From: Dictyostelium discoideum
Taxonomy: Eukaryota
NCBI GenBank assembly: GCA_000004695.1
Contig: CM000154.2
Coordinates: forward strand, 2,752,001 to 2,816,000
Direction: 5' to 3'
DNA length: 64,000 bases
In this document: positions 42,822-53,584 of the stretch, piece by piece
Layout: each line of letters opens with the position of its first letter
Position numbering within the stretch: the stretch's first letter is position 1
The notes under the pieces: generated by a model
What the model was told of the DNA's origin: nothing
Databases searched by the model: none
The model's input: only the letters and a program-made list of their open reading frames with translations
Position numbers and translations under genes: made by a program

Positions 42822-45698
42822 ATGAAGTTTAGAGATCTTTTAAATGATCATATTATTAGTCATTGGAGAGATAAATATATTGATTATGAATATTTAAAGG
42901 ATTTAATAGATAGAGAATATCATAATGCACCAAATTCATTAAATAATAGTATGATGATTGATATGTCACAATCAATCAATAATACAATCGCCGAACAATA
43001 TAGTGTCAATGATATTTCATCAATGGTAACCAAAGGTGGTATAAATGATTCACCAACTACAGATATTGAAGTGGATGAAACTGCAGATAGTCCAGCTATA
43101 CCTTCACCAATTATAAGTCACAGTAATATTAATAGTAATAATAATAATAATGGTGGAACAAATAGTGTTGGATTTTCTCATCTTCATAGACAATTAAATA
43201 GACAAAATAGCAATCTTAAAAATAGTAGTAATAGTATTAATTTACTTAAAGCCGATGATTCAAATAATATTGAAAAACATGTAAAATCATATTTTGATCA
43301 AAGAAATAATAACAACAATATTAATAACATCAATAACAATAATAATAATAATAGTAATAATAGTAATAATAGTAATAATAATAAAACAATTAAAAATACA
43401 AGAAATATTATAGCAGATGATGATGGTGGTAATGAAGATACTACACTTGGATCACCATTTAGTTCACCATCAATTGGATCACCACCAATGTCATCACCAT
43501 CACCAAAGATGTTAAAACAAGAATTACATTCACCATTGTTAACATCAGAAAAGGATGAAGATGAAGAGGAAGAAGGAGAAGAAGAAGAAGATATTGAAAT
43601 GGAGCAATTGGAATTGGATGATCATGATAAAAATACAACTATCAATATGACAGCCAATGGTAGTAGAGGAAATTTACGTAAAGGAATGAATCAATTTGTT
43701 AAAACAATACCGCAAAATATAAAACAATTAAATAGTCAAATTAGTAATTCATTTTTAAAATTTGGTGGTATGGTTAAAGGCGATAAAAGTAATGATAAAA
43801 ATAATGATAAAAGCAATGATAAAAATAATAATAAAAATAATAAAAATAATAATAATAATAATAATTTAAATGATGAAGATAATTTTGATATGATGACATC
43901 ACAAATTGAAAAAGTATTAAATAATAAAGATAATATGAAATTAATGGAAAGTTGTACATTTACAACTAAAGAGAATTTTCAAACAGCATTTGTTGATCAA
44001 GTTAATAAGGTTGATTCATTTTTTGTTGAAAGATATAGAAAGACCAAAGAGAAATGTGTTGAACTTTGTAATATGATTCCATTTTTATCAACAAATGAAC
44101 AATTGAGAACAATTAGAAATATTGAATTTGTAAAACAAGGATTTCAAGACAATTATCATTATTTAGAATCATTGGAAGCATTTAAAGAATTGAATATTAA
44201 AGGTTTTAAAAAGGTATTGGAAAAGTATGAAAAAAAGAATCGTATAATTTCATCAGAATGTAGAAAATATTTAGAGAATACTAGAATCTTTGAAAATGAT
44301 AGTCCAGTTAGATTTTTATCACATAGAATTAAACATTTGTATGCACGTTATTTCACTGGTAATGATGTAAAGTTGGCATCCAATCAAATTAAAACCTATG
44401 CAGAGGATGAACGTTTTCAAAAGTATAATCTATTCACAATTGGTTTACTAATTGGTGTTTGCATTGTGTTGGGAATTCAAGTTGTATTCAATTACTATTA
44501 CTATTATCCACACGAACAACCACCAATCGATTCACCATTGGCATGGTTATTATTCCGTATTTCACTGCTACCCATTCTATTGGGTACAATGTTTTCATTG
44601 ATGTCGTTTATTTGGGAAAAGAGTGGTATAAATTATGTATTCATATTCGAGTTTAAACCTGACCATAAGAGATCGCCTGGACGTTATTTAAAGTATGGTT
44701 TAATTTTCAATACACTTTGGCTGTTGGCGTTAAATCTCTATATAGATTCATCATCTCATCAAAATACAACAAGATACTTGATTCTAATTCCAATAGTTTT
44801 CGTATTGATCACTTTGATCATCGGTATTCAACCATTTCCAATAATGGCACATCGTACTCGTTTTTGGGTTTTGAAGAAGATCGTCAAGGTAGTTTCAGCT
44901 CCATGGGTGCCTGTAAGATTTCCAGATTTCTTTATGAGTGTTCAGTTGCTAAGTCTTGGTGAATTCCTTTTCAATATTCAATCAATGGTTTGTGTTTTCA
45001 ACTATAGTGCATTGGATCCTGAAGAGGTGAAATTTTGTTCACAATCCCGTTTCTTTGCTTTACCAGTTTTAAATGCCTTACCATATTGGTGGCGTGTTGC
45101 TCAATGTTTTAGACGTTATTATGAAACTCGTCAATTCTTTCCACATATTACAAGTGCAATTCGTTCAATCTTTTCAATTATTGCATTGGTTTTAAATTAT
45201 ATTGCATTGGAATATTCTCAACATGATTGGAGTATTATCAAGATAGCTTGGTTTGGTATTAATGTGGTTGGTAGCTTTTATAAATTCTATGCCGATATGT
45301 CTGTAGATTGGGGTTTCTTTAATAATTATAAAACCAATCCTGCTTGGCCATTAAGAGAGAAATTGGTTTTCAAAAAAAAATGGATCTATTATGTTGCAAT
45401 CACTTTGGATTTCTTTTTAAGATTCACTTGGTTAATCATTTTCTCAATTAGAAAAGGCTCAAAACATAGACTTGACAATCCACTCTTTTTATTCTTTTTC
45501 TCTCTAACTGAAGTGGTTTGGGCAACACAATTCATTTTCTTCCGTGTTGAATCTGAACATGTTCAATCTCCAGATACCTATAGTTCTTTCCAAGATATTC
45601 CAATTCCATTCTCTCAAGAATATAATAATTATATGGATGAAAAGAAAAAAAGAAGAAAAAGAAAACAAAAACAATCAAAAAGCAATAATAACAACAAC

Positions 45699-45731
<33 letters not shown>

Positions 45732-46064
45732 CGTCTTCATCATAATGATAGTAGTAATAATGTTGAAACTGATGAAACTATTACTTCTTCAAATAATACT
45801 GATAGTAGTCATCAAAAACAACCTCTAACTCATAATCGTCATCATAATCATAATCATAATCATCAAGATCATCATGATCTTTCTATTAATGATCATATGA
45901 ATCCTGATACTGGTGATATTAATTTCGATTCAAAAATCGATTATAAAGATGATGAAGCTTATAATTTAAGACAATCATCACTACGTACTTCAATTTCTCG
46001 TAATGCTTCCCATGTAGATTTAGGTCGTGTTTCTTCTCATAATGATTTAAATATAAGTAGAGGT

Positions 46065-46067
<3 letters not shown>
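42822..46067 (+). CDS. SPX-EXS domain protein (XPR1/PHO1/SYG1-like phosphate exporter homolog) with long poly-N/poly-S inserts
   Basis: The N-terminal SPX domain starts MKFRDLLNDHIISHWRDKYIDYEYLKDL. The C-terminal EXS region has multiple TM segments and conserved blocks (WWRVAQCFRRYYETRQF, FLRFTWLIIFS, FFRVE). Confidence 0.8.
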
Positions 46068-46101
<34 letters not shown>

Positions 46102-46333
46102 TTTTTTTTTATTTAAATAAATTTAAATAAATATTGTGTTAATATAAAATAAAATAATAAAAAAAAAAAAAAAGATAATTATCTTTGAAAAAGAGTAAAA
46201 AATTTTTAAAAAAATTGTATGAGATTTACTTTTTTGTTTTTTTGGGACAGAAGAAGATATTTAATTTTTAAAAAAAGATTTTATTGAAATAATGAAAAAA
46301 TGCTATAACTTTAACTCCTATAACGCTATTTAT

Positions 46334-46721
46334 TTAATTACAGCAATATTTTTTACCTATTTGGATATAGTTACATGAATCTAAATTCAAACCATTGGTA
46401 TCCATGAAGCTTTGGAGTGAGACTCCACATCCTTTTTTTAAACAGGTTATTAAAGATTGAAAAAAAAAATAATTAATAAAAATCCAGATTTTAATAGATA
46501 AACTTTAAAGTTTATAAAAAAAGGAGTTTTCAATCAAAGTTGTTAAAAATAATAAATTTTAATGATTTACCTCTACTCATGTCCCAGCAAGTGTAACCTT
46601 CCTCTGCATAATACCAGGAAGAACATCTTCCTTCAGTTTCAGCATTGGAAACGAAGGAAAAGACACATAAAACTAAACTTAAAACTACCAAAAAACTTAA
46701 AAACTTGTTTACAAAAAACAA
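46334..46721 (-). CDS. Small secreted Cys-rich protein, paralog A (82 aa). It has 2 exons, 46721-46571 and 46431-46334.
   Basis: Exon 1 encodes the signal peptide MFFVNKFLSFLVVLSLVLCVFSFVSNA followed by ETEGRCSSWYYAEEGYTCWDMSR. The donor is AG|GTAAAT and the acceptor is AAAAAAAG|. Exon 2 encodes GCGVSLQSFMDTNGLNLDSCNYIQIGKKYCCN*. The 8-Cys pattern is shared with paralog C. Confidence 0.5.
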
Positions 46722-46884
46722 TATAATTAGAATTGATTTTTATTTTTTTATTTTATATTTTTTTAATCTTCTAATATTTACTTTATTCATTCTTTAAAGG
46801 ATATATTTAATTGAAATACTATTTATTTAATAATTTGTTGCTCAATGTATTTCTTTTGGTTATTATTTTTTTCTTTTATAGTCG

Positions 46885-46917
<33 letters not shown>

Positions 46918-47898
46918 TAATAAATGCAAATTTTCAAATAAATTATATTAATTTTATATTAGTCATATAATACCACCAATTTATCTGAATTTTGGACCGA
47001 AAAAATATTAAAAGAAGAATAGAACAAAAAAATAAATAAATAAATAAAACTTGTAAATTCAATGGTATAAAATGATATAAACTCGTATGGACTAAAATAA
47101 TTAAGAATTGGAATTTGGTTGTTAGGCTTTTATATTAGATAGTACCAACAACTTTGTATTGATATATATGAAATTTTTTATTTTATTTAATTTTTTTTTT
47201 TAAAAAATAAAAAATTGGTGTGAATAGATAATTTGAAAAAATTATTTGTTTGTCTCAATCATATAATTAATTTGAATTTATTTATGTACTCATTAACAAA
47301 GGAGGCCATAAAATTAATTTTTTTATTTATTTTTCAAATTTATTATTTAATATCTATTTTAATAAAATAAAATAAAAAAAAAAAATAAAAATAAAAAAAG
47401 TAATTTTATATTATGGTAATTGATAAAAAAAATATTTTTAGTGGTTAAAATTATACAGATGGTTCTAATTAGAAATTGAATTGAAATTTAATCATTAAAA
47501 TGACAATTACATTAATGTTCTTGTCTTCAATAACAATTATAGATAAATATAATCTTTAGATAATATTTTCCAACTTTTATTTTTAAAATTTATATGATTA
47601 TCAATTTTTTCATTTTATTTAAATGATTTTTTAAATTTTAAAAAATTAATCATCAAATGAAATAATTTACGCTTCATATAACTTTCAGTATTTTTGAAAT
47701 TTGAAAATTTATTCAAAATTAATAAACATTACAATAAAAACTCATTAAAAGATAGTAGATGTTACAAGATTTATTTAACCAATTGTTTTTTTTTTTTGAA
47801 ATTGTATATTGGTTGTAGTTTCCTAAAAAGAAAATAAAAAAATAAGCTGAAAATATAGCAATAAAATAATGTAAAATAATTGATGAATTTTCATTATT

Positions 47899-47998
47899 NN
47901 NNNNNNNNNNNNNNNNNNNNNNNNNNNNNNNNNNNNNNNNNNNNNNNNNNNNNNNNNNNNNNNNNNNNNNNNNNNNNNNNNNNNNNNNNNNNNNNNNN
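47899..47998. other. Assembly gap (100 N)
   Basis: A run of n characters. Confidence 1.
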
Positions 47999-49441
47999 CA
48001 TTTAATTTATTTTATTTAAAAAATAATCATTTAATTTATTTTATTTAAAAAATCTCATTTTTGATAAACAATATTGAAAAGGCTTCATGTGCATTTTATT
48101 ATATTAGTTTTTTTTTTTTTTTAAAAAAATGGGGTTAATATAGCACTTTGTGTTTTCTTTTTTTATTTTGTTTATTTTTATTATTTTAATAAATGGAGTT
48201 ATTAAAAGTAGTTATTAAATTAATAATATTTAAATTTTAAATTGCAATTTAATAAGTTGATATAAGCAAAACCCATAATCGAATTAATCTCATTTTTATA
48301 ATACTAATAATTTAAACCTTATTTAAAAATGATTTAATTTTAATTCCCATAAATTTGAAATAATAGGGTAATACAAGCAAACCATATCATTGGAAAATAA
48401 TAAATAAAATAAAGGAATTTTATATATAATAGTTTATTAAATTTTAATTGATTATTAAAAAAAAAAAAAAATAATTGAAAAAAAAAAAAAAAAAAAAAAA
48501 AAATTTAAAAAAGATTTGAGGGTTTAGAAAAGAATAATATCATATAGAGATATTATTAAAATTTATTTATCATTATATTGGGCTAATAATTGAATAAAAA
48601 TCTCCTTTCTTATTATCCAAAAAGCAATTATCAAAATTTTAAATTGTTATTAAATTTAATAATTTTATGTTTTAATTTATATTATTATTTTTTATATTTT
48701 ATTTTTCACTTTTAAGTAAAAACTATTATTTAAAGAGTCAAACCCAAAAACAGTAACTTGATTTTACATAATATTTTAAATATTAAAAACTTTAATTTAA
48801 ATTATAATTTTAAGAAAATGGAAAATATAAGGACTTATATTAAATCCCTATTTTTTACATTTAAAAAAAAAAGAAAAATTTCTAAAGTCAATTACACATT
48901 AATTTTTTTTTTTTTATTATAAAAACCAACTGTCAAGTTTGAAACTTATACAAAAAATAGGTAGCAAAAAACAAAATTTAATTTAATTTTAAATTATAAT
49001 TTATTAGTATTGTTGTTGAATATTATCTTTTTCTTTTTTTCTTTTTTTTTTTTTTTTTTTTAAATAACCAACAAAATTAAAATTTAAATGTTTCATACCT
49101 CCTAAATTTCCCATTTCATTTTATTTTATTAATCATAAAAACCTCAATTCTTTAAATTGCGACAATATTTTCTACCAATTAGAACGTGTTTTCAATCAAA
49201 TTCTACGACATTAAAAAAAAAAAAAAAAAATTTGGATAAAATGATATTATTAAAATTTATAATTGTAATTAACTATTTAAATAATTACACTGGAAAAAAG
49301 AAACTGACAAATTTTATCCCATATCCAAAACTTAACCAAGTTTTATCTCTTAAAAAAAAAAAAAATTGGAAAATATAATTTTAAAGTTTGGACAAGAATA
49401 ATATCACAAAGAGATATAATTAAATTTTTATTTATCATCGT

Positions 49442-49653
49442 TTAATTACAACAATATTTTTCCCCACTATAATATTGCTGCAATCCTTTTTATAATTTAA
49501 ATTATTAATTTTCAAAAAAGAATTCAATGACAAATGGCAAGAAGTTGACATATCGATACAACTATGACTCAAAGCCCTTTCTGGCATGATGTAATCAGTG
49601 CAACCGTTTTCTTCAGCATTTAAGCCTACAGAGAAAAGAAATAAAGCAAATCA
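49442..49653 (-). pseudogene. Frameshifted paralog B of the small secreted Cys-rich family
   Basis: MICFISFLC is in one frame, …GLNAEENGCTDYIMPERALSHSCIDMSTSCHLSLNS… is in the +1 frame, and the C-terminal GEKYCCN* is in a third frame. This implies at least 2 frameshifts relative to paralogs A and C. Confidence 0.35.
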
Positions 49654-50473
49654 TGTTAAACTTAATAACTTAGATTTGGAATTAGTAAAAATAAAATTTG
49701 AAAAATAAAATTCGGTAATTTCTTATTTTTTGATGAGATAAAATTTGGTAATTTCTTTTTTTTAGTGTAATTTTTTGAACATTTTATTACAATTATAATT
49801 ATAATTCATACAAGCATAAAAAATTAATGGACAATTATAAAGTTGCAATTTTTTTTATTTATGGTCACCATAAATTGATTTTATTTTATTGGTTTTTTTT
49901 TTTTAACAAGATTGTTAATGTAATTAAAGATATAAAAAAAAACAAAAAAAGAAAAAAAAATTTAAAATTTTTTTGTTTGCTAAAACTTGTGCAAATAAAA
50001 CACCTAACAATAATCTATTTAATTTTTTTTTTTTTAATTTTTTTAGCAAATTACTATAGATATTTTTTTGGATATTTTTTAAAAATACCCCATAAAGGTT
50101 TTTTTTTATTATTATTTGGCCTAAAAAAGTTCTTTGTAACCAAAGTCACAACGAATTCCCATTGTATATTCCCAGACCAATGAACACCACATGTCTTCAA
50201 CAGATTTCTTTTTTCTCTATTTTTTATTAATCATTATTTTTTTTTTTTTATTTTTTATTTAGGATTAAAAAAAAAAAAAATAAATAAAAATCAAATAAAC
50301 AAAAAAAAAAACAAACAAAGCTTTTATATTAAAACAATTGTTCAATATTATATTTTTATTTTATTTTTTTAAAAAATCAACAAAATTAAAATTTAAATGT
50401 TTCATACCTATAAATTTTACAGTAAATTTCCCATTCCTTTTTATTTTATTAATCAGATAAAATTCCAATGCAC

Positions 50474-50686
50474 TTAATTACAACAATATTTTCTTCCAAT
50501 TTGGACGAGTTTACAAGCATTGTTATCCAATTTATTTGTACGCATGAATTGATCAAGAGTAACTTTACAAGAAGTGGCCATATCATAGCAGGTATAACCT
50601 TTTTGAGCTACATGCCAACTTGAACATGAACCCATTTCCTCGGCATTTGAACATGAGAAAGCACATAAAACTAAAACAAATGCCAA
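50474..50686 (-). CDS. Small secreted Cys-rich protein, paralog C (70 aa, intronless)
   Basis: The product is MAFVLVLCAFSCSNA|EEMGSCSSWHVAQKGYTCYDMATSCKVTLDQFMRTNKLDNNACKLVQIGRKYCCN. It has a signal peptide and 8 Cys. It aligns across the position where paralog A carries an intron. Confidence 0.5.
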   Translation of the reverse strand: MAFVLVLCAFSCSNAEEMGSCSSWHVAQKGYTCYDMATSCKVTLDQFMRTNKLDNNACKLVQIGRKYCCN

Positions 50687-51732
50687 TCCTATTAAATTTA
50701 AAAACTTTTGATTTTTTAAAAAATAAAATTAATATTACTTTTTTTTTTTTTTTTATATATTTTTATAATTTTTACCTTGTTCATTTTTATACTAATTTAA
50801 ATTTGAATATTTAATGTTTACTTTTTTTTTTGATGAATAATATAAAATAAAAAAATGATATTTATACCTTTTTCTTATTTAGGTTTTTTTTATTTTAATT
50901 TTATTTTTTTAATTAAAACTTTTAAAATTACAAATAGTGGTAATTAATACCAATAAACTAGTAATATTGTTACAAATATGCAATAAAATGACGATATTAA
51001 AAATAAAAATTAAAACTACACCAATAGCTTTAAATAGGAAATCTTAAAATTAAACAATAATTTCCTTTTTAATTTTTTATATCAATTTGAACATAATCAC
51101 ACATACTTTAATATTTAATTATATCAAAAAATAAAAAATAAAAAAAAAAATAAAAAATAAAAAAAAAAAAAAAAAAAAAAAAGTGGGGTTAAAATATTTG
51201 TAGATTAAAGTAATTATAGGAAATAAAAGATATTATATTAAACTTGGATTAGATTAAAATGTTAGTAGTATAATTTTTTAAAAGAAATTATAATTATATT
51301 AATTAATATATAAAAAAAAAAAAAAAATCTGGAAAATAAATTTTAAAGAAAAAAAAATTAAAGTTTAATTTATCAAATATATGAATGTAGTTTTTTTATT
51401 TAATATCCTATAAAATGAATTTTTGTTGGGAGATAATTATATTGTATCTTTTTTTCAAATAATTAAAAATTTAATCTTTTTATTAATTATTTTAATGATT
51501 TTAAGTTTAATTGGTATTTTTCTATTTTTTTTTTTTTTTTTTTTTTTTTTTGTTGGTATTGTTAAAAATAATTAAATTTTACACACAATATGAAATCCAA
51601 AAAAAATAAAAATGAAAAAAAAAAATAATTTCCAGTGCTTCAATATTTAAAAAGAAATGAATTTTATAATACAAAAAAATAAAGATTATTTATTAAAGAT
51701 TTTTTTTTTTTTTTAAAAAAAAATATCAAATA

Positions 51733-53584
<1,852 letters not shown>

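Follow-up and report, generated by a model that had tools for sequence, protein, structure and literature searches.

The LysM domain of chitinase A from ferns and horsetails (Protein Data Bank (PDB) entries 4pxv, 5ylg and 5bum) has a beta-alpha-alpha-beta fold and is attached to a GH18 catalytic domain. The LysM effectors of fungi (Mg1LysM, 6q40, a single LysM of ∼78 amino acids (aa), and Ecp6, 4b8v) are small, secreted and Cys-stabilised, and have no enzymatic domain. Annotated LysM paralogs of Dictyostelium discoideum and D. firmibasis encode, behind a mini-exon that reads MNK, a predicted signal peptide and a six-Cys LysM ending in YCCN. We analyzed a stretch of 64,000 nucleotides (nt) of D. 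discoideum AX4 chromosome 5 (assembly GCA_000004695.1, contig CM000154.2, positions 2,752,001 to 2,816,000 of the forward strand; hereafter the window), which holds a cluster of genes with these same features, every copy on the minus strand: gene A, gene C, a disabled copy B and a fragment D. Gene A is interrupted by exactly 139 nt (intron 2) where C and B run on uninterrupted. It is quite likely that the region is a birth-and-death tandem cluster of small, predicted-secreted, single-LysM-domain proteins, in which A is functional and its intron 2 was gained and is spliced.

The chitinase A LysM domains give the best sequence and structure matches to the cluster proteins, and the two share four Cys (at the start of the domain, in GDxC/GYTC, before the LQIG motif and at the C-terminal C); four of the six family Cys fall at positions occupied by Cys in plant and fungal LysM domains. 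In contrast to chitinase A, the LysM makes up the whole mature protein here, and there is an extra Cys pair (after helix 1 and the second C of the CC). In architecture, the fungal effectors come closest, and they superimpose with a Foldseek root-mean-square deviation (rmsd) of 1.7-2.1 Å, but identity to them is only 17-22% and the organism here is a bacterivorous amoeba, not a plant pathogen; an effector-like role of Dictyostelium LysM proteins may be proposed by analogy only. Unlike the annotated Dictyostelium paralogs, A has an extra intron and is absent from protein databases, and B is disabled. No study of these gene identifiers was found in the searchable literature. In strain V12M2, a LysM gene, DDB0218607, was expressed at a 32-fold higher level (Sillo et al., 2008; PMC2443395); this identifier could not be mapped to the copies described here.

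An earlier, sequence-only reading of the window had reported three paralogous loci with an intron presence/absence difference, and both points are borne out. Paralogy was confirmed by tblastn within the window (E 1e-25 for A vs. C and 1e-11 for B vs. C), and the 139 nt at 46432-46570 of A have no counterpart in C, which is continuous. The spans then given to A (46334-46721) and C (50474-50686) missed a 9-nt first exon, and we corrected them to 46334-46790 and 50474-50784. Genes A and C each encode 79 aa, and both open with the exon ATG AAY AAR (MNK), followed by a GTAAA-type donor and an intron of 71-78 nt. Splicing of C gives a product that matches XP_636223.1 / Q54HI1 (DDB_G0289443, "peptidoglycan-binding lysin domain") at 100% identity. 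Thus, C is already annotated; gene A is absent from the current D. discoideum annotation, and its exact protein, spliced or read-through, was not found in a collection of 15 billion proteins. The parts of the two genes are:

Gene A, 46334-46790, minus strand: exons 46790-46782, 46703-46571 and 46431-46334; protein MNKFLSFLVVLSLVLCVFSFVSNAETEGRCSSWYYAEEGYTCWDMSRGCGVSLQSFMDTNGLNLDSCNYIQIGKKYCCN.
Gene A exon 1, 46782-46790, minus strand: ATG AAT AAA (MNK), then a GTAAAT donor.
Gene A intron 1, 46704-46781, minus strand: 78 nt, phase 0, GT..AG; the ancient family intron.
Gene A exon 2, 46571-46703, minus strand: the remaining signal peptide and LysM beta1 and alpha1, from the translation.
Gene A intron 2, 46432-46570, minus strand: 139 nt, phase 1, GTAAAT...AAAAAG, 85% A+T.
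Gene A exon 3, 46334-46431, minus strand: LysM alpha2 and beta2, ending in IGKKYCCN; TAA stop at 46334-46336.
Gene A, spliced junction of exons 2 and 3: ...ATGAGTAGAG joined to GATGTGGAG.
Gene C, 50474-50784, minus strand: exons 50784-50776 and 50704-50474; protein MNKFLNLIGLAFVLVLCAFSCSNAEEMGSCSSWHVAQKGYTCYDMATSCKVTLDQFMRTNKLDNNACKLVQIGRKYCCN.
Gene C exon 1, 50776-50784, minus strand: ATG AAC AAG (MNK).
Gene C intron 1, 50705-50775, minus strand: 71 nt, GTAAAA...AAAAG.
Gene C exon 2, 50474-50704, minus strand: TAA stop at 50474-50476; matches the deposited protein.

Two further assemblies labelled D. discoideum, GCA_054883475.1 (L002) and GCA_054859355.1 (L003), were compared with AX4. Non-coding DNA of L003 is 84-87% identical to that of AX4, its C protein is 92% identical, and the synonymous divergence (dS) in gene A is ∼0.15; L003 looks like a distinct lineage or a cryptic species and not an ordinary strain. 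In D. firmibasis, six intact tandem genes (RB653_008944 to 008949) occupy the syntenic site between a PRMT gene and the counterpart of an SPX/EXS open reading frame (ORF), and the A ortholog, RB653_008944, has 87% aa identity. Polysphondylium violaceum has two homologs, and further annotated AX4 paralogs lie on chromosomes 2 (DDB_G0271110), 6 (DDB_G0293854 and P0161, the latter also named a "peptidoglycan-binding lysin domain" protein) and 5 (DDB_G0289783). The MNK mini-exon is common to A, C, the six D. firmibasis genes, L003 and P. violaceum, and the position of intron 1 is kept in every family member examined, P. violaceum included. In a neighbor-joining tree, the A copies of AX4 and L003 (bootstrap 100) joined D. 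firmibasis Df_44 at 93, C joined Df_49 at 89, a type ending in HDYCCN joined Df_45 at 90, and B grouped with the intact DDB_G0293854 at 100.

Intron 2 begins with GT and ends with AG, and its removal gives a product colinear, residue for residue, with C and with RB653_008944. When it is retained the frame reads ...SRGKSLKFIIFNNFD and stops after 12 codons, with loss of helix 2 and strand 2. Between AX4 and L003, 9 of the 240 coding sites of A differ (3.75%; six synonymous and three nonsynonymous changes) and no indels are seen; the omega of 0.11 departs from neutrality (binomial P = 0.002). In introns 1 and 2 together, 40 of 203 aligned sites differ, in addition to several indels (Fisher P = 8e-8); the introns have diverged ∼fivefold faster than the exons since the two lineages split. 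The same holds when exon 3 (4 differences in 98 nt, no indels) is set against intron 2 alone (19 of 127 sites, 15%, and 24 gap columns; P = 0.008). Exon 2 has a G+C content (GC) of 0.34-0.37 vs. 0.15 in the intron, and is 97.8% identical to L003 at the aa level. Relative to the D. firmibasis ortholog, omega is 0.10 overall and 0.054 in exon 3. From the constraint on exon 3 and the truncation upon read-through, we infer that intron 2 is spliced out and that gene A is functional. An exact search of metagenome contigs for the spliced A junction gave no matches and, like the look-up of the A protein, is uninformative.

If the 139-nt insertion were instead left unspliced, A would be a disabled gene and a young pseudogene, as B is. 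This would explain why annotators never called A, which is missing from the protein collection and from two annotations, and the insertion, when retained, does bring an early stop. The insertion, however, is older than the AX4/L003 split, at a dS of ∼0.15, and during that time the exons changed by less than 4% with no indels, whereas the introns changed by ∼20% and acquired several. Selection at the omega given above, together with GT and AG ends, a reading frame and six Cys kept in both lineages, speaks against this, and real decay can be seen in the same cluster, in B. Gene predictors, moreover, easily miss small genes of several exons when the first exon has only 9 nt. We therefore consider it unlikely that A is disabled.

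The distribution of intron 2 was compared among A, B, C, the six D. firmibasis genes, L003 and one P. violaceum homolog, a set that leaves out AX4 P0001, P0160, P0161 and P0015. Neither B nor C has intron 2; the six D. firmibasis genes, the A ortholog included, and the P. violaceum homolog lack it as well and have intron 1 only, and the D. firmibasis ortholog reads ...TCAAGAGGATGTAGA... unbroken across the site. In L003, A carries at the same site a recognisably homologous intron, also of 139 nt, with GT..AG kept. The junctions (AGAG/GTAAAT...AAAAAG/GATG) show an AG/G proto-splice site and a 3-nt direct repeat, AGG, at both ends. Since such a single-lineage distribution takes one gain vs. ∼5 independent precise losses, a gain is favoured, and the best reading of these sequences is that intron 2 would be a lineage-specific gain on the D. 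discoideum stem. The phase-1 insertion at the AG/G site, in the loop that links the two helices, would postdate the divergence from D. firmibasis and predate that of the two D. discoideum-labelled lineages.

The alternative, that intron 2 is ancestral and was precisely lost from every other copy, gains some credit from the habits of this genome. The D. discoideum genome has roughly 16,000 introns in ∼12,500 genes. Loss mediated by reverse transcriptase (RT) is common in it, and 441 precise losses stand against 40 putative gains after D. discoideum and D. purpureum diverged (Ma et al., 2015; PMC4683709); gene conversion among tandem paralogs could also spread an intronless state. On the tree, however, an ancestral intron demands ∼5 precise losses (Df_44, the HD clade, the C-type clade, the B-type clade and P. 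violaceum), and at rough rates of ∼2.5% of introns lost and ∼0.3% of genes gaining one, five losses would be far less likely than one gain. The intron is missing in D. firmibasis, even though that species retains all six cluster genes. Each type clusters with its counterpart in the other species (A with Df_44, C with Df_49, HD with Df_45), contrary to homogenising gene conversion, and RT-mediated loss would tend to take intron 1 too, which every copy keeps. We regard an ancestral intron 2 as very unlikely. It is likely that A is a functional, unannotated LysM gene and that its intron 2 ranks, among spliceosomal intron gains in Dictyostelium, with the youngest and the best bracketed. Like the gains reported by Ma et al. 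(2015), it is a lineage-specific intron without an identifiable source, but it is much more tightly bracketed, since D. firmibasis lacks it and two D. discoideum-labelled lineages carry it; that survey could not include it because gene A is unannotated.

Where intron 2 came from was sought in the sequences at hand. The best blastn match (52 nt, 79%, window 50241-50292) was judged compositional. By eye, intron 2 was seen to share 13 identical nt (TTTGATTGAAAAC) with the region upstream of fragment D, which could be due to chance. An origin by tandem duplication was rejected, the ends of the intron being unlike the adjacent exon ends on inspection.

The sequence-only reading had described the mature peptides as ∼55-aa, 8-Cys and Cys-knot-like. 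The length was confirmed, and a tandem family of small, predicted-secreted, Cys-containing Dictyostelium proteins is upheld. The family alignment gives six invariant Cys in the mature domain; the extra ones lie in the signal peptide (two in C, one in A). Pfam PF01476 (LysM, CBM50) matched C at 21.8 bits and A at 20.9 bits, a thin margin at a gathering cutoff of 20.9 bits, and 7 of 11 family members matched at E <= 0.01; a repaired B sequence gave no PF01476 match. When a family profile was searched against PDB sequences, the LysM domains of Pteris and Equisetum chitinase A were recovered (4pxv, E 3e-4; 5bum, E 1.5e-3), with four Cys aligned on Cys.

The AlphaFold2 model of C has a beta-alpha-alpha-beta order (E32-35, H42-48, H53-59 and E75-78), with a predicted local distance difference test (pLDDT) score of 83-93 across the domain. 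In a Foldseek search of the PDB with this predicted model, the top 13 matches, and most of the top 30, were LysM domains or LysM-containing proteins (among them 4uz2, 4pxv, 5bum, Ecp6, CEBiP and Mg1LysM; Thermus thermophilus NlpC/P60, chitinase A and a Volvox chitinase), with an rmsd of 1.5-1.9 Å over ∼48 residues and a target-normalised TM-score of up to 0.80. A profile search for the family was run with HMMER against 1.84 billion representative proteins. It yielded 497 relatives at E <= 0.001; the best 150 are mostly long with several matched stretches each, and the few that were read in sequence show repeated LysM-type motifs (GDTC...IA...N...C.NLQIGQ..C). On the sequence and model evidence, the domain is a LysM of predicted beta-alpha-alpha-beta fold and not a cystine knot; since Pfam, the PDB profile, AlphaFold with Foldseek and the HMMER scan all give LysM, the term "Cys-knot-like" is unsupported. 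That the proteins are cystine-knot-like signalling or kin-recognition peptides with a spurious LysM match is barely credible: they are small, predicted-secreted and Cys-rich, their Pfam LysM scores are just at threshold and a weak, non-significant PDB match to BMP-7 (E 0.15) was seen, but this was the sole knot-family match in the PDB, Pfam knot families gave none at E <= 10, the methods concur on LysM, the scan returned hundreds of multi-stretch proteins and the predicted fold is not an all-beta knot.

By inspection, the N-terminus consists of MNK, a hydrophobic stretch of 17-20 residues and (S/V)NA before E, conserved across the family; AlphaFold places a helix at residues 5-20 with low pLDDT. 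The 79-aa products would thus carry a predicted signal peptide ending in SNA, followed by a ∼55-aa LysM domain with six Cys. Such a signal peptide would send a disulfide-stabilised LysM module outside the cell or into the endo-phagosomal lumen, where the secreted proteins may act as putative soluble lectins for N-acetylglucosamine glycans of prey or competitors, that is, bacterial peptidoglycan and/or chitin.

Several points weigh against this account of the cluster and of gene A. Expression of A and splicing of intron 2 are read from sequence, and the constraint on exon 3 since the insertion is measured on few sites (two synonymous and two nonsynonymous). Gene A has no entry in the protein collection searched, and the annotations of L002 and L003 do not call it. 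No source of intron 2 was found by blastn (word size 7) in the window, L001 and L002, with L003 left out, where only low-complexity matches in A/T runs appeared. The Pfam LysM scores lie right at the threshold, and glycan binding is proposed from LysM family membership alone.

Downstream of C, the third paralog has decayed. The features of this part of the cluster are:

Pseudogene B, 49442-49671, minus strand: B-type LysM paralog.
B mini-exon remnant, 49714-49731, minus strand: start codon lost; aligns to ATGAATAAAGG in L003 (ATG kept, donor GG).
Inverted repeat flanking B, left arm 49245-49322, right arm 49733-49810, no strand: 78 nt, 79% complementary, not simple sequence.
Fragment D, 49043-49198, minus strand: 3' end of a C-type gene (coding 49156-49191, HVLIGRKYCRN) and a copy of the C 3' flank.

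Copy B had been described as needing two frame changes to be read. It is indeed disabled, but by one nonsense codon and one frameshift rather than by two frameshifts. An in-frame TGA lies at 49653-49651, where the paralogs have Gly (GGA), and ahead of ...KYCCN the frame is shifted near 49465, where 7 nt net have been deleted when compared with the L003 copy. The signal peptide has in addition lost 12 nt in frame, and the W and GYT motifs are gone. Because the independent assembly L002 has B with the same bases throughout, the lesions are not AX4 sequencing errors, and homopolymer errors, which had been offered as a possible explanation, are excluded. In L003, the TGA is shared and the C-terminus is in frame, with lesions of its own (donor GT>GG, first Cys>Phe); since the TGA is common to AX4 and L003, B was already dead before the lineages split. 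By its sequence, B is a real, old pseudogene of a distinct B-type sublineage. The sequence ATGTTCAAA near 49782 had been considered as the mini-exon remnant of B and was discarded, as the L003 alignment puts the remnant at 49714-49731.

No B-type copy was found in the D. firmibasis cluster. The right arm of the inverted repeat overlaps the 5' flank of B, so that part of the B upstream region appears duplicated in inverted orientation downstream of B; with the D. firmibasis cluster lacking a B-type gene, the repeat may be a trace of the entry of the B-type copy into the cluster. Two 140-aa proteins, P0007 (L002 10001-11350) and P0008 (L003 10001-11327), join the end of C to B across an estimated ∼800 nt, and this C+B "fusion" is likely a gene-prediction artefact. 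Fragment D, which the sequence-only reading had overlooked, matches only the 3' end of the L003 C gene.

An assembly gap lies within the cluster, and it had been suggested that more copies may be hidden in it. The gap, the sequence beside it and the copies at the locus are:

Assembly gap, 47899-47998, no strand: 100 N, bridged by L002 12787-12825.
Orphan 3' flank of a deleted HDYCCN paralog, 48000-48574, minus strand: matches L003 12971-13518, directly downstream of the L003 HDYCCN gene.
Copies at the locus in D. firmibasis: 6 intact.
Copies at the locus in L003: 3 intact and 1 pseudogene.
Copies at the locus in AX4: 2 intact, 1 pseudogene and 1 fragment.

The position of the N run is as reported earlier, and the suggestion of hidden copies is refuted. 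L002 matches both sides of the gap at 99.6% identity with only ∼39 nt of AT-rich non-coding DNA between them, and therefore no copy is hidden. The orphan flank and window 48572-48712, which matches L003 11939-12079, bracket in L003 ∼890 nt that are missing in AX4, including a third intact gene of the HDYCCN type. AX4 would thus have deleted a third functional copy from the cluster, and D would represent a 3' piece of a C-type copy. Within AX4, the gene most closely related to the lost one is DDB_G0271110 on chromosome 2 (bootstrap 99). The HDYCCN gene (L003 12735-12965) stands in the chromosome 5 cluster of L003 and of D. firmibasis, and with the AX4 relative on chromosome 2, a relocation, or a duplication followed by loss, is suggested. 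The earlier statement that the family is evolving fast holds for copy number, given the counts listed above, but not for protein sequence: the intact cluster genes have an omega of 0.1-0.3, denoting purifying selection.

Scans with Rfam and ARAGORN over 45500-52500 gave no matches to non-coding RNA or transfer RNA (tRNA). A GC island (0.32 vs. ∼0.12 in the flanks) lies at window 50100-50200 in the C-B intergenic region; it contains no convincing ORF and no Rfam or tRNA match, and conservation in L003 (81% identity) is confined to its left part (50072-50147). A 1081-aa ORF (42822-46067, plus strand) with long Asn-rich and poly-N/His tracts lies directly upstream of the cluster. It was read as an SPX/EXS protein from its N-terminus, by inspection only, and D. 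firmibasis, L002 and L003 have it at the corresponding position. At window 52955-53200, a long, imperfect repeat of short period gave dozens of staggered megablast matches, offset by 6 nt, to L002 2300-2540 and 7600-7835; a coding repeat of triplets or hexamers in the neighbors on the PRMT side is the probable explanation.

These data do not overturn current understanding, as the family and the domain were already known. The new elements are an unannotated member whose intron 2 appears to be a recent, well-bracketed gain, the verification of a pseudogene and the resolution of the gap; the feature pointed out by the sequence-only reading is real and was largely well described, but wrongly classified. 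This analysis adds (i) to the D. discoideum annotation, the missing gene A and corrected gene models; (ii) in intron 2 of A, what would be a clean recent gain in a genome where losses far outnumber gains; and (iii) documented rapid copy-number turnover in a family of predicted-secreted single-LysM proteins. To our knowledge, tracing of source and mechanism has succeeded for only two Dictyostelium introns so far. If the gain is true, more genomes of the D. discoideum complex could let the source and the mechanism of intron gain be traced. In a professional phagocyte, such proteins may serve to recognise, agglutinate or sequester the peptidoglycan of bacteria or the chitin of fungi, among other possible roles.

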